From the NCBI GenBank assembly GCA_947305775.1, contig CAMZEN010000008.1, positions 2,646-66,645 on the forward strand: a DNA stretch of 64,000 nt. The letters are read 5' to 3'. This document shows positions 7,872-11,734 of this stretch, piece by piece. Both the position numbers and the translations under genes were made by a program. How positions within the stretch are numbered: position 1 is the first letter of the stretch; every line of letters starts with the position of its first letter. The notes below the pieces were generated by a model, which made no database searches, was not told the origin of the DNA, and saw nothing but the letters and a program-made list of their open reading frames with translations. This DNA comes from an uncultured Verrucomicrobiota bacterium. GTDB taxonomy: Bacteria > Verrucomicrobiota > Kiritimatiellia > RFP12 > UBA1067.

Positions 7872-9233
7872 TCAAGCGCGGCGAAAGAGGGACTCATCCA
7901 CTGCCCTTCTCCCAACGTGTCCGCGCCACTTCAGCATGGACAGCAGCACCGCAAGTGCTAGAAGAGGCTGGTAGTATAGGCTCTTTGCGAGCGAAAGCGA
8001 ATCGACCTGGATGTCCAGCCCCTTGGCTACGCCCATCGCAATCAAAATCTGCGCACCATACGGCAAAAGCCCCTGCACGACGCAGGACGCCGTGTCAAGC
8101 ACAGATGCCACGCGCACCGGGTCTACCTTGAACTTCTCCGCGCATGCTTTCGCGATCGGCCCCGCGATGACGATTGCGACGGTATTGTTCGCGGTGAAGC
8201 AGTTCACAGCGGAAACGAGGAAGAAAACGCCAAGTTCGCAGGAGCGAGGTCCCCTTATCACCTTCGCGATGCGGTCCGTGAGCCATGCGATGCCGCCGTT
8301 CTCGCGCACGGACCTGAACAGCCCGCCCGCGAGCAGCGCCACGATGAGGGTCTCACCCATTCCAAGCGCACCCTTGCCCAGCAGGTCCATCGCGTCGAAG
8401 AACGCGAACCGCCCAAGTGCGCCGCCGATGACTGCCGAGAGGAGCGTCCCGAAGAACAGGAGCGCCATCACGTTAAAACCGACCAACGCGAGCGCCAGTA
8501 CGAACACATAGGGAGCCACGAGGATGAAATGCTGTCCCGACACGGGCGCGGTTTCGACGACCCCTGCGGCGGAAGAGCCGGACATCGCATAGAGGAAAAG
8601 CGCGACCAAAGCTGCCGGCGAGGCGATGAAGCCGTTCGCAAGGAACTTGTCCTTCATCCGCACGCCTTGCGTCCGTGTTGCGGCAATCGTCGTGTCGGAG
8701 ATCATCGACATGTTGTCGCCGAACATCGCCCCGCCTATCGTCGCACCCATCAGGAGCGCCGGGCTCAGGTGAAGCGGTTCCGCGAAGCCGAGCGCAATCG
8801 GCGTCACGGCGGCGATTGTCCCGCAGGACGTTCCGATCGCCAGCGAAATAAGGCACGACACAAGGAACACACCCGTCACCATGAACTGCGCCGGAACAAA
8901 GCGTTCCGCAATGGCGACCGCCGCATCAACAGCCCCCGCCCCCTTCGCTATCGTGGCGAATGCGCCCGCGAGAATGAAGACAAGGCACATGACCATGATG
9001 TTAGGGTCGCCCATCCCGCGCGCGTACGTCTCGACCTTCTCATCCAGGGAATGGCGTCCAAAGAGGAGCGACGCCGCGGATGCCACCATGAACGCGACAG
9101 GCATCGACACTTTGTACCACGGCATATCGAACCCGAGGTGCGCGGCGAAAAGCGACAACCCTACGTAAAACGCTGCGAACACGACGAACGGGAGCAACGC
9201 GGCGCCGTTCGGCCTTATAGTGCCGCCGCTCAT
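7872..9233 (-). CDS. nhaC: Na+/H+ antiporter, NhaC family (453 aa)
   Basis: Polytopic membrane protein. Stretches such as GMGDPNIMVMCLVFILAGAF, GTSCGTIAAVTPIALG and GGAMFGDNMSMISDTTI are typical of NhaC-type antiporters. Confidence 0.75.
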   Translation of the reverse strand: MSGGTIRPNGAALLPFVVFAAFYVGLSLFAAHLGFDMPWYKVSMPVAFMVASAASLLFGRHSLDEKVETYARGMGDPNIMVMCLVFILAGAFATIAKGAGAVDAAVAIAERFVPAQFMVTGVFLVSCLISLAIGTSCGTIAAVTPIALGFAEPLHLSPALLMGATIGGAMFGDNMSMISDTTIAATRTQGVRMKDKFLANGFIASPAALVALFLYAMSGSSAAGVVETAPVSGQHFILVAPYVFVLALALVGFNVMALLFFGTLLSAVIGGALGRFAFFDAMDLLGKGALGMGETLIVALLAGGLFRSVRENGGIAWLTDRIAKVIRGPRSCELGVFFLVSAVNCFTANNTVAIVIAGPIAKACAEKFKVDPVRVASVLDTASCVVQGLLPYGAQILIAMGVAKGLDIQVDSLSLAKSLYYQPLLALAVLLSMLKWRGHVGRRAVDESLFRRA

Positions 9234-9261
9234 TCCGGAATCCCCTCATGCATCGACTTCT

Positions 9262-9277
9262 TGTGATTCAAATCACA
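9262..9277. promoter_or_regulatory. perfect inverted repeat TGTGATT-CA-AATCACA in the nhaC leader (candidate operator)
   Basis: 7+2+7 palindrome read directly. Lies between the nhaC -10 element (9300-9308) and the start codon (9233). Confidence 0.3.
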
Positions 9278-9299
9278 CCTCTTTCCCTTTTCGGCGGAT

Positions 9300-9308
9300 A
9301 TTATACCA
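9300..9308 (-). promoter_or_regulatory. extended -10 promoter element TGGTATAAT (nhaC)
   Basis: Reverse complement of plus attatacca, in context gatatttggtataat, 67 nt upstream of the nhaC ATG. Confidence 0.55.
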
Positions 9309-9365
9309 AATATCCCGTGTTCACAAAGATGGATTGCCTCTATGTTGCCCTGTGGTGTTGGGATA

Positions 9366-9374
9366 TGGTATAAT
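9366..9374 (+). promoter_or_regulatory. extended -10 promoter element TGGTATAAT (distal promoter of the Cys-rich/TCS operon)
   Basis: Context ggatatggtataatt. Divergent from the nhaC promoter. Confidence 0.5.
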
Positions 9375-9445
9375 TCGATGTATGATGGAGGGCAAACGAA
9401 AGTTTCATGCTGTTGCAATCTGGTGACAAACGAATCACCGGAATA

Positions 9446-9454
9446 TGGTTTAAT
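9446..9454 (+). promoter_or_regulatory. extended -10-like element TGGTTTAAT (proximal promoter)
   Basis: Context gaatatggtttaatat, 51 nt upstream of the ATG at 9505. One mismatch to the common motif. Confidence 0.4.
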
Positions 9455-9504
9455 ATGCGCCGTTGCCCCGCAACAGGGGCTGTCATAAAGAAAGGAACAA
9501 GAAA

Positions 9505-10032
9505 ATGAAGAAGTCCATGATAACGCTGTTCGGTGTGGCGCTAGCCGCCGTAGCCTTTGCACAGGGTCCAGTCTGCGACGGAAGGAAGTGCGGTCCAAGG
9601 CCGCAGTGCCCGCGCGATGGAAGGGGTTGCGGTCCGCAGCCTGTGGTGCTGTTCGTGACCGAGCAGACCGATGATGCGGCGGTCGAAGCCTACAAGCAGG
9701 CCGTTCTCGCCCAGATCGACGAAGCAGTCGCCAAGGGCCGCGCCCCCATGCCGGAAGTAACGAAGTGCGCATGCGAAAAGTGCGAGTGCGAGCAGTGTGC
9801 ATGCGAAAAGAAGCCCTGCCGCCGTCCTCCGCTCAAGCTGGAGTTCTCGGTCGGCTGCAAGCCTCCGTGCTTCAAGGGCGGGCGTCCGCGCTTCGGCAAG
9901 GGAGAGCGCCCCGACTTCGGAAACTGCGAGCGTCCGCGTTGCGAGCGCGGCCAGGGCGAAGGATGCGCAATGCCGCCTCCGCCGCCTGCCGCTCCAGAAG
10001 CCCAGGAAGCCGCACCTGAAGTCCAGCAGTGA
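9505..10032 (+). CDS. secreted cysteine-rich protein (175 aa), function unknown
   Basis: Start chosen at MKKSMITLFGVALAAVAFA (signal peptide, aaggaa SD upstream). 16 Cys in the mature chain, including KCACEKCECEQCACEKKPC. Pro-rich tail. Its stop overlaps the GTG start of the kinase gene (GTGA). Confidence 0.6.
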   Translation: MKKSMITLFGVALAAVAFAQGPVCDGRKCGPRPQCPRDGRGCGPQPVVLFVTEQTDDAAVEAYKQAVLAQIDEAVAKGRAPMPEVTKCACEKCECEQCACEKKPCRRPPLKLEFSVGCKPPCFKGGRPRFGKGERPDFGNCERPRCERGQGEGCAMPPPPPAAPEAQEAAPEVQQ

Positions 10033-11054
10033 AATCGCTCAAGATATACATATTGACCGTAGGCGTCCCCGCGCTGCTTCTGGCATGCGCGGGCGTTCGC
10101 CTTGTCCAGCTTGAGGCGCGCCACGCCGGACGCCCCCAAATAGAGTGCCGTCAGTTCAACGATTGCTGTCCGCCTGACATGCGCCGACTTCCGCCGCCAG
10201 TGCGGCGGCACATGCCTCGCGTGTTCCGTGAGGATGAATTCGGCGATTCTGTCGCGCGTGAGCGGAAGCTTTGGATCGGTGGATGCGTCGTAGGACTGCT
10301 GTTCCTCTCGCTCGTTTCTGGTGCGTGGCTGCTTGTGAAAAGCGAGCGCAAGGCGCATGAGGACGCGATGCGCAAGACGGACTTTCTCTCCAACGTGTCG
10401 CACGAGTTCAAGACGCCGCTAACGACGATCTGCCTCTGTGCAGAGCTTGCGCAGGACGACGGCATGGACCCCGCCCGCCGCAATAAGGCGCTGCAGTCGA
10501 TCGTTTTCGAGGCGAACAGGCTCAAGGGGCTGGTACTTCAGGCGCTAGACTTCAGCAGGCTCGAAAAGAAGGCGCGGCGCTTCAATATCACGAGGTGCGA
10601 CATCGCCGAAATCGTGCGCGAATCTTCCGAACCGTTCAGGGAGCGCTTCCCTGAAGGCGGACTTGTCGTCTCTGCCGACGCCCAGGCACCCGCAATGGCC
10701 GATGCAGACGCGGTCCGGCAGATTGTCGCTGTGCTGCTGGACAATGCTGCGAAGTATGCCGCGGCCGGCGGACCTGTCGAGGTCTCGTCCGGCGTTTCCG
10801 GCGATGGACGGGCCTTCCTCTCCGTGGCCGATAGAGGCGCGGGGCTCACGAGTGAAGCTCTCCGCCACGTGTTCGACAGGTTCTGGCGCGGTGACGACGC
10901 AACAACCGCCGAAACAGGCGGCTCAGGACTTGGCCTCGCAATCGCCCGTGAGCTTGCTCTTGGCATGAAAGGCGACCTTTCAGTGGCGCGGCGCAACGGT
11001 GGCGGACTCGTCTTCAAGCTCACTCTTCCGTGCGCAGGGGCGGAAAGCCTATGA
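10029..11054 (+). CDS. sensor histidine kinase (341 aa)
   Basis: Two TM segments flank a ~70-aa loop with 3 Cys (IECRQFNDCCPPD). H-box SHEFKTPLTT. G-box GGSGLGLAIARELA. Confidence 0.85.
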   Translation: MKSLKIYILTVGVPALLLACAGVRLVQLEARHAGRPQIECRQFNDCCPPDMRRLPPPVRRHMPRVFREDEFGDSVARERKLWIGGCVVGLLFLSLVSGAWLLVKSERKAHEDAMRKTDFLSNVSHEFKTPLTTICLCAELAQDDGMDPARRNKALQSIVFEANRLKGLVLQALDFSRLEKKARRFNITRCDIAEIVRESSEPFRERFPEGGLVVSADAQAPAMADADAVRQIVAVLLDNAAKYAAAGGPVEVSSGVSGDGRAFLSVADRGAGLTSEALRHVFDRFWRGDDATTAETGGSGLGLAIARELALGMKGDLSVARRNGGGLVFKLTLPCAGAESL

Positions 11055-11734
11055 CCGACATACTTTTTGCAGAGGACGACGCTGGAATTCGCGAATGGAC
11101 AGCTCTGGCCATTGAAGGGCCGACCTGCCGCGTCAGGGCGGTGGCGGACGGCGCCGCCGCCATCAAAGCTTATGAGGAGAAGGCCCCTGATCTCGTCATA
11201 CTGGACGTAATGATGCCGAAGATGTCGGGCTGGGATGTGCTCGCCGAGATAAGGAAGAAGGACAAGGCGGTTCCAATAATGATGCTGACCGCCAAGTCCG
11301 CCGAAGCCGACAAGGTGATGGGACTCGACCTTGGCGCCGACGACTATCTGGCGAAGCCTTTTGGCGTTGCGGAGCTTCGCGCCCGCGTCGCCGCGCTTCT
11401 TAGGCGGGCGGCAATCTCGTCGGTGCCGGTCGCGGCGAAATCTTCCAGCTTTACCGTCGGCTCGCACACCGTAGATCCAAAGCGGTCGGCCTTGTTGGAC
11501 GAGGATGGCGGCGAAACGGAACTTACTTCGCTTGAGCTTGGGATATTGCAGCATCTTCACGCGCATCGCGGCGAAATAGTTTCGCGCGACAGCCTGCTTG
11601 CCGGAATATGGGGCAACGCCTATCAGGGCACTAACAGGACCATCGATACGCGCCTTGCCCGGCTGCGCCAGAAGCTTGGCGACGATGCTGCGCTTGTCGA
11701 AACCGTATATGGCGCAGGCTACCGCATGCGGTAG
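11051..11734 (+). CDS. OmpR/PhoB-family DNA-binding response regulator
   Basis: ATGA overlap with the kinase stop. Receiver ILFAEDD...DLVILDVMMPKMSGWDV...MLTAK. Winged-helix C-terminus RTIDTRLARLRQKL...VYGAGYRM. Confidence 0.85.
   Translation: MTDILFAEDDAGIREWTALAIEGPTCRVRAVADGAAAIKAYEEKAPDLVILDVMMPKMSGWDVLAEIRKKDKAVPIMMLTAKSAEADKVMGLDLGADDYLAKPFGVAELRARVAALLRRAAISSVPVAAKSSSFTVGSHTVDPKRSALLDEDGGETELTSLELGILQHLHAHRGEIVSRDSLLAGIWGNAYQGTNRTIDTRLARLRQKLGDDAALVETVYGAGYRMR

Follow-up and report, generated by a model that had tools for sequence, protein, structure and literature searches.

The operon described here lies in a 64,000-nucleotide stretch of DNA (hereafter the window, meaning the whole stretch) from an uncultured Verrucomicrobiota bacterium of the Kiritimatiellia, contig CAMZEN010000008.1. 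It encodes, in this order, a small cysteine-rich exported protein, a histidine kinase and an OmpR/PhoB-type response regulator. On balance, we favor an autoregulated operon in which a sensor-poor kinase works with a secreted partner that is both the main output of the system and its sensory or feedback element, with thiolate plug-ins that probably adapt some lineages. The OmpR-type regulator would activate its own operon through an 11-bp-phased repeat standing in place of a -35 element. The small protein would be the main, first and most direct product induced by the system. It would also work in trans on the periplasmic side of the kinase, as a partner for sensing or feedback, with an unrelated protein following the logic of CpxP. 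Its CxCxxCxCxxCxC run and scattered cysteines would be a lineage-specific plug-in within disordered parts. These cysteines, probably free thiolates in this Dsb-less anaerobe, would serve as ligands of a soft metal or as targets of oxidants and so tune the response of the pair, and the partnership itself would be independent of them.

An orphan exported family and its kinase

The open reading frame (ORF) of 175 amino acids (aa) is marked as a real gene by purifying selection and by the conservation of its signal peptide and ribosome-binding site (RBS). Against four relatives, the ratio of nonsynonymous to synonymous substitution rates (dN/dS) was 0.13-0.33 overall. It was 0.03-0.15 for the core alone, and 0.2-0.58 for the tail, where selection was relaxed yet purifying. 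The N-terminal hydrophobic segment spans residues 4-20, and the alignments showed this signal-peptide N-terminus to be kept across the family. An earlier note on this DNA had described an exported protein of 175 aa with 16 cysteines, which both the hydropathy profile and the count in the mature chain confirmed. The protein is predicted to be Sec-exported, periplasmic and largely disordered. The full-chain AlphaFold 2 (AF2) model was poor, with a predicted local distance difference test (pLDDT) score of 44, and the helix at residues 57-78 alone was modeled. The core-only model, based on a deeper alignment, reached a pLDDT of 69.7, with 88-92 over model residues 11-40 (first strand-like segment and helix) and 74 over residues 71-80 (second segment). 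A lipoprotein reading was rejected by eye. The conserved cysteine in the signal peptide of the relatives (AICGA) is unfit as a lipobox, having I/L/V at position -1 and too short a preceding h-region, and the window protein has phenylalanine instead.

By the searches made, the small protein belongs to an orphan, previously undescribed family. Among 5.8 billion proteins we found 16, later 24, homologues. Each was either without a name or annotated as "hypothetical", and each came from a Kiritimatiellae assembly of gut or rumen. Searching 1.84 billion representatives with a profile of 57 core positions yielded 41 matches, among which there was no known family; the credible ones were all 83-250 aa long and had the same architecture. 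Clustering at 50% identity divides the family into ~40 groups, nearly all of them from a single Kiritimatiellae genus. It was present in 18 of 319 genomes of the order, namely in 17 of the window's genus and in one of a second genus of the same taxonomic family. The window protein matched the A5 family profile with E=1.1e-25, and no Pfam or NCBIfam family at E<=0.1. For P0003, P0015 and P0038, hmmscan returned no Pfam family even at E<=10, and the core had no match in the PDB, either by Foldseek on the AF2 model or by sequence profile. The protein also lacks the LTxxQ motif of CpxP, Spy and ZraP. The view of the earlier note that it is unlike CpxP and ZraP was thus upheld, and the profile and Foldseek searches it had suggested found no relative.

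The family plan starts with the signal peptide, a disordered P/R/G-rich linker and a strand-like (R/K)P..L.(V/I) segment. An amphipathic helix, ..KT....(I/V)..(F/Y)K..V..(K/Q)(I/V)DEAVA, and a further linker follow. The plan ends with a second hydrophobic strand-like segment (LKLEFSV or IVLFVND) and an R/G/P-rich tail, which usually finishes in APEAPAPEAE. All parts of the family definition were found in the window protein, including the core motif (R/K)P..L.(V/I)..(K/N)T....(I/V)..(F/Y)K..V..(K/Q)(I/V)D. At the level of sequence, the family is defined by this predicted strand-helix-strand core of ~55 aa and not by cysteines.

The order of small gene, kinase and regulator was seen at 14 or more loci whose flanks are unrelated, with the genes joined by 4-nt overlaps or by gaps of 0-20 nt (L005, L006-8, L009-11, L014-15, L016-17, L018, L020, L023, L098 and L179; in the genus set of the window, L180-L182 and L188-L197). 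The neighborhood comparison proposed in the earlier note came out in favor of a partner dedicated to the two-component system: the triad is syntenic elsewhere, with tight or overlapping junctions and different flanks. In the window, the three genes are co-directional with overlapping starts and stops, as the note had described. The TGA of the small gene (10030-10032) overlaps the kinase GTG at 10029 (GTGA), and the TGA of the kinase (11052-11054) overlaps the regulator ATG at 11051 (ATGA). A metagenome scan with the kinase profile added one further close relative (L098); the flanks of the distant kinases were too short to show partners. The cytoplasmic parts of the small-protein-linked kinases formed one clade, with a support of 95 in the Shimodaira-Hasegawa-like approximate likelihood ratio test (SH-aLRT).

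The strongest argument that the free small protein acts at the periplasmic face of the kinase is a natural fusion of core and kinase. In two genomes, G004 and G254, the kinase directly 3' of a free small gene holds a copy of the core in its periplasmic loop (RPRPTLSLRIDAKTTREQAEAYKRAVFEKIDAAAAAYSACPPAERKPLRVSLLVVDRG). These loop cores matched the family profile with E=3.6e-18 and E=1e-8, respectively. Their identity to the window kinase is 59% and 52%, and the alignment puts the core where the window kinase has its short loop. The idea of a dedicated partner draws on this fusion as well as on the triad.

A different rearrangement was seen at L196 (G260:C2). There, 3' of the small gene, the kinase TM1-loop-TM2 part (TM, transmembrane segment) is joined without interruption to the C-terminal end of the regulator DNA-binding domain. 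An internal deletion has apparently destroyed the two-component system, and the small gene and the box were kept.

The window kinase was assigned to class I HisKA kinases by PF00512 (HisKA, 1.2e-13) and PF02518 (HATPase_c, 1e-22), and the regulator to the OmpR/PhoB family by PF00072 (9.2e-30) and PF00486 (5.3e-19). No NCBIfam equivalog scored above its cut-off for the small protein, the kinase or the regulator. The hydrophobic segments TM1 (residues 5-27) and TM2 (81-104) of the kinase enclose a loop of ~53 aa, residues 28-80, shorter than the ~70 aa given in the earlier note. Pfam gave no HAMP match in the window kinase. HisKA begins ~12 residues after TM2 and the H-box lies only ~20 residues past it, which leaves no space for a HAMP domain. 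Orthologous kinases are 52-82% identical to the window kinase (82% for L010), and that of L189 is 93% identical over the cytoplasmic part. Their loops are 51-156 aa long, low-complexity and poorly conserved; in the N-terminal part, only TM1, the juxtamembrane PRVFxED..DSVAxERxLW and TM2 are kept. With its short, low-complexity and variable loop and no HAMP domain, the window kinase appears to be sensor-poor. Classical intramembrane-sensing kinases have loops below ~25 residues, and the loops of the window kinase and its orthologues are longer than this.

The operon promoter and its putative regulator site

The promoter conserved in the relatives consists of a direct repeat and an extended -10 element (Table 1). 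Together, these form a phylogenetic footprint common to loci with unrelated flanks. Across the relatives, the half-site consensus was GT(T/G/C)(G/A)CAAT and GTGACAA(A/T). The second half-site is separated from the extended -10 by a spacer of 18 nt, and a conserved GCGCCGT follows the -10. In all kinase-linked loci of the genus, a position weight matrix (PWM) of the repeat scored 18.6-34.1 bits at 80-119 nt 5' of the ATG; the score was 11.4 bits in L193, from the second genus. Direct repeats phased by 11 bp at the -35 position are the classical arrangement for OmpR/PhoB-type activators. From this geometry we infer positive autoregulation by the operon's own regulator.

Scanning the window organism's own genome with the PWM showed the operon promoter as the sole strong site (34.7 bits, the next being 21.3). 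A wider regulon was rejected, as the weaker matches were not convincing. The second-best box, C13:4342 (-), has TTTAAT 19 nt downstream and lies upstream of a cluster with an epimerase and a GT2 glycosyltransferase; a second regulon member at this site is possible but unconvincing.

The earlier note had placed two tandem -10 elements upstream of the operon. These exist, at 9345-9386, but the promoter conserved in the relatives is another one, ~70 nt further downstream. The scan for sigma-70-like sites found 3, compared with 0.6 expected. The element TGGTATAAT lies at 9366-9374; a similar one precedes the box in L014, L016 and L020, though not in all loci. The upstream sites possibly provide the operon with an additional, constitutive promoter. 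The hairpin in the 5' untranslated region was rejected as a conserved element, being not significant alone and weak as a consensus fold; by eye, hairpins of different sequence occupy the same place in relatives.

The operon was delimited to three genes because its flanks, identified by Pfam, are a divergent NhaC-type antiporter gene and a convergent sialidase gene. The intergenic region 9234-9504 (271 bp) is common to the operon and the antiporter gene. The RBS of the small gene is AAGGAGG in L179. Elsewhere in the genome of the window organism, at C14:9273-9310 (+), C33:8587 (-) and C45:598 (+), there is an 11-bp-phased triple repeat, CGTAACATTCG x3, followed by TTTGCGATAATGG. It resembles the site of a different response regulator.

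Table 1. Coordinates of the operon, its predicted elements and the two fusion kinases (window positions unless a locus is named)
Feature	Position	Strand	Remarks
NhaC-type antiporter gene	7872-9233	-	Divergent from the operon
Two overlapping sigma-70-like sites	9345-9374 and 9358-9386	+	TTGCCC-18-TATAAT with TG; TTGGGA-17-TATGAT
Direct repeat TGTTGCAATCTGGTGACAAACG (putative regulator site)	9411-9432	+	Half-sites GTTGCAAT 9412-9419 and GTGACAAA 9423-9430; 11 bp apart, at the -35 position
Extended -10, TGgTTTAAT	9446-9454	+	Kept as TATGGTTTAATATG(C/T)(G/A)CCGT in most relatives
Hairpin GCCCC-gcaaca-GGGGC	9465-9480	+	Near the predicted mRNA 5' end; -11.4 kcal/mol, z -1.1
RBS GAAAGGA	9490-9496	+	GAAAGGAA(C/A) kept before ATG in most loci shown
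Gene of the 175-aa exported protein	9505-10032, stop included	+	ATG after GAAAGGA; first gene of the three-gene operon
Sec-type signal peptide MKKSMITLFGVALAAVAFA	9505-9561	+	By hydropathy; predicted cleavage AFA|QG
Family-defining core, residues 43-120	9631-9864	+	Strand-like PVVLFV, amphipathic helix DDAAVEAYKQAVLAQIDEAVAK, linker, strand-like PPLKLEFSV
Clade-specific Cys-run insertion CACEKCECEQCACEKKPC, residues 88-105	9766-9819	+	In the helix-strand linker; CxCxxCxCxxCxC
Disordered R/G/P/C-rich tail	9865-10029	+	GERPxF-like repeats, acidic PPPPPAAPEAQEAAPEVQQ end; pLDDT <50
Histidine kinase gene, 341 aa	10029-11054	+	HisKA and HATPase_c (Pfam)
Low-complexity kinase periplasmic loop, residues 28-80	10110-10268	+	Juxtamembrane PRVFxED..DSVAxERxLW before TM2
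OmpR/PhoB-type response regulator gene, 227 aa	11051-11734, stop included	+	Response_reg and Trans_reg_C (Pfam)
G004 fusion kinase	L192 (G004:C6), L192:190-1341	-	Core in loop
G254 fusion kinase	L190 (G254:C165), L190:28-1188	-	Core in loop

Cysteines of the partner and of the kinase loop

The mature window protein has 16 cysteines (residues 24, 29, 35, 42, 88, 90, 93, 95, 98, 100, 105, 118, 122, 141, 146 and 154), no histidine and two methionines; the KCACEKCECEQCACEKKPC run and the PPPPP tail pointed out in the earlier note are both present. Its cysteine fraction, 10.5%, was the highest of 166 crude signal-peptide ORFs in the genome (median 1.2%). From CGY codons, the transitions from arginine to cysteine and to histidine are equally accessible. 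The presence of 16 cysteines and no histidine argues for selection on cysteine rather than drift in an arginine-rich region.

The cysteines varied widely within the family. C24 was the sole invariant cysteine among close homologues. About a third of the counted members had no mature cysteine, including members still coupled to kinase and regulator. The CxCxxCxCxxCxC run was found in the window clade and a few other members only. Its six CxC cysteines were kept within the window clade down to ~45-50% overall identity, and the L005-type sublineage lost the run. Other members carry cysteine-rich modules in the N-terminal linker (P0034, P0038, P0039, P0045, P0060 and L195) or, with different sequences, in the helix-strand linker (P0051, P0053, P0055 and P0058). 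Cysteine-rich partners require at least three changes on the kinase tree. Methionine averaged 4.1% in cysteine-poor members, compared with a background of 2.0% (Spearman coefficient between cysteine and methionine, -0.44). The thiol- or metal-sensing co-sensor of the earlier note was not supported in the form given there: the Cys pattern is not kept family-wide, and cysteine-free members retain their coupling.

In the kinase loop, the three cysteines listed in that note (IECRQFNDCCPPD) are present as Cys40, Cys46 and Cys47. As a shared trait, the cysteine-bearing sensor loop failed, because all three are arginine in the two nearest relatives, L010 and L189. Loop cysteines occurred in 6/9 loci whose partner has at least 7 mature cysteines, compared with 1/9 with a cysteine-poor partner (Fisher one-sided p=0.025, two-sided 0.05; 18 loci, kinship ignored, a small and uncorrected statistic). 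Both features were combined in the window, L006/L191, L179, L197, L195 and L190, and the loop cysteines sit at non-homologous positions across loci. A tendency of loop cysteines to accompany cysteine-rich partners is suggestive only. The alignments mark the cysteines of the partner and of the kinase loop as lineage-specific additions.

No match to DsbA, DsbB, VKOR or Thioredoxin_4 was found in the 92%-complete genome of the window organism, and control genomes gave matches. The exported thiols are for this reason probably reduced. The Cys run may plausibly function with metals or oxidants.

A CxC-rich module just after the signal peptide was also seen in two further exported proteins encoded by this genome: a 318-aa protein resembling outer-membrane proteins and ending in ...LSASF (C18:9802 (-), DPCQCGKPECTCGADCKCTVETCSCGC), and a 151-aa protein (C30:30511 (-), TCKCACPC). 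In this organism, such a module might serve as a periplasmic tag that can be moved between proteins.

Competing readings and related systems

Several points weigh against a secreted partner that signals through the kinase. Contact between the small protein and the kinase is inferred from gene order and one fusion lineage. The window kinase lacks the core, so a homotypic contact of the kind suggested by the fusion does not apply directly to the window. The putative site at 9411-9432 was assigned to the operon's regulator by co-occurrence only, and the association of loop cysteines with cysteine-rich partners comes from the small sample given above. Several members have neither cysteine nor excess methionine, which implies that metal binding is not the family-wide function. 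Finally, the small genes of L184-L187 (G213, G229, G230 and G017) stand alone in genomes without the kinase. They are followed by a gene for a GalE-like UDP-glucose 4-epimerase, and the PWM found no regulator box there; a fifth stand-alone gene, L012, has a weak box. These copies imply that the small protein has some function of its own and is not purely a co-sensor.

The stand-alone copies are the backing of the main rival, a serious one that we nevertheless consider unlikely, in which the protein is an effector only. It would be a disordered periplasmic sponge for soft metals or oxidants, or a protectant, like SilE/PcoE or metallothionein, with no part in signaling. The small gene's own promoter as the sole strong box in the genome, the outstanding cysteine fraction, the methionine enrichment of cysteine-poor members and the free thiols expected without a Dsb system would all suit such a role, as would the precedent of SilE, a periplasmic sponge that is disordered and has its gene next to silRS (PMC5008109). 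What is conserved, however, is the cysteine-free core and not the sulfur-rich segments, and several members have neither cysteine nor excess methionine. A pure sponge also leaves the core in the kinase sensor loop of two genomes unexplained, and there is no metal pump or resistance gene in the operon or its conserved neighborhood.

The resemblance to SilE and PcoE, encoded beside silRS and pcoRS, lies in the signal peptide, disorder, richness in soft-metal ligands and an adjacent two-component system (PMC5008109). There is no sequence relation and no efflux pump in the neighborhood, and SilE binds through His/Met motifs (HxxM/MxxH), in contrast to the residue composition of the window protein. 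Metallothioneins share the CxCxxCxCxxCxC spacing in a short low-complexity stretch, here in an organism without a disulfide-forming system. They are cytoplasmic, whereas the window protein is predicted to be exported; it gave no Pfam metallothionein match at E<=10, and its Cys run is an insertion inside a larger protein that is not a metallothionein.

Another reading, which we hold to be distinctly unlikely, gives the cysteines a direct part in the contact. The ~55-aa unit would be an unrecognized periplasmic signaling domain, either built into the kinase loop or free and secreted, whose disordered flanks take up interchangeable Cys-rich or Met-rich "antenna" modules. In this anaerobe without Dsb proteins, the thiolate-rich antenna of the free protein and the matching loop cysteines would together trap a soft metal, or oxidants would drive them into a mixed disulfide. 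This bridge between partner and kinase would be read as the signal, and the whole would be a sensor provided in trans whose ligand-binding part is modular.

A wider evolutionary frame was provided by distant orthologous kinase-regulator pairs in another Kiritimatiellia and in Opitutales, at 38-52% identity and with the TM1 motif PALLLAxAG kept. Directly 5' of these kinases, in L021, L022, L025, L026, L027 and L036, lies a gene for a secreted protein with a von Willebrand factor A (vWA) domain. The vWA-linked kinases have a periplasmic domain of 190-300 aa and partners of 290-460 aa, and in the kinase tree they form the sister group and the outgroup of the small-protein clade. This vWA/kinase/regulator triad of Opitutales and other Verrucomicrobiota is apparently undescribed. 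Either the vWA partner was replaced by the small protein, or the small protein is what remains of it in unrecognizable form. We regard as improbable a drastically reduced descendant of the secreted vWA protein that kept the first strand-helix-strand. The shared gene position and the kinase tree speak for it, and the vWA partner in L021 resembles the small proteins in its P/R/G repeats and PAAAPA..E tail, besides having a degenerate metal-ion-dependent adhesion site (MIDAS) motif. However, comparing the family with the vWA partners by hhalign aligned the signal peptide only, or gave E=0.25, the DxSxS motif is absent, the core profile matched no vWA protein among the 1.84 billion representatives, and the resemblance of the tails is compositional. 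The triads thus share an orthologous kinase-regulator pair with a secreted-protein gene directly upstream, but the partners have no detectable homology. A vWA remnant concerns origin and is compatible with the explanation that we favor.

Least probable of all is a structural role, in which Cys/Pro-rich and Arg/Gly-rich disordered segments crosslink or coat the envelope and the two-component system controls their supply under envelope stress: it could appeal to the Cys/Pro-rich envelope proteins of Planctomycetes and Chlamydiae (PVC superphylum), to the N-terminal CxC modules of the exported C18:9802 and C30:30511 proteins, to the second-best box before the epimerase/glycosyltransferase cluster and to the GalE-like gene adjoining the stand-alone copies, but that box is weak, with its spacing to the -10 off by 3 nt, no disulfide-forming machinery was found in the genome, and many family members are cysteine-free.

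The autoregulated operon with a secreted kinase partner has parallels in known systems. In the CpxP and ZraP systems, a small exported protein is induced by its own system's regulator and acts back on the periplasmic face of the kinase. The window operon likewise encodes a small exported protein together with its two-component system, as CpxP-CpxAR and ZraP-ZraSR do, and regulator induction and feedback on the kinase face would be common to all three. Unlike CpxP, the accessory protein of CpxA (PMC4755656), and ZraP, the window protein is predicted to be mostly disordered with a single helix. Its gene opens the operon of the two-component system and is coupled in translation to the kinase gene, in place of a divergent arrangement, and the kinase has neither a folded sensor domain nor HAMP. 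The control of a sensor-poor kinase via a partner is also known from MgrB-PhoQ, LiaF-LiaS and BceAB-BceS, and in MgrB periplasmic cysteines tie signaling to the redox state. MgrB and LiaF are membrane proteins, whereas the window partner is predicted to be soluble and exported, and there is no sequence relation.

Kinase accessory proteins are known from a handful of model systems and are almost unstudied outside Proteobacteria and Firmicutes. The present family adds an orphan domain with a testable kinase link, by operon coupling, a conserved box and a natural fusion, in the abundant uncultured Kiritimatiellae of gut and rumen. For annotation, the gain is a new family and a putative regulator-binding motif, and the eye-catching cysteines are not the conserved feature. 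The family is a natural series of cysteine-rich, methionine-rich and sulfur-poor variants, which could show how ligand-rich disordered segments join a signaling scaffold. It could also show how exported cysteines are used in bacteria without disulfide-forming enzymes.

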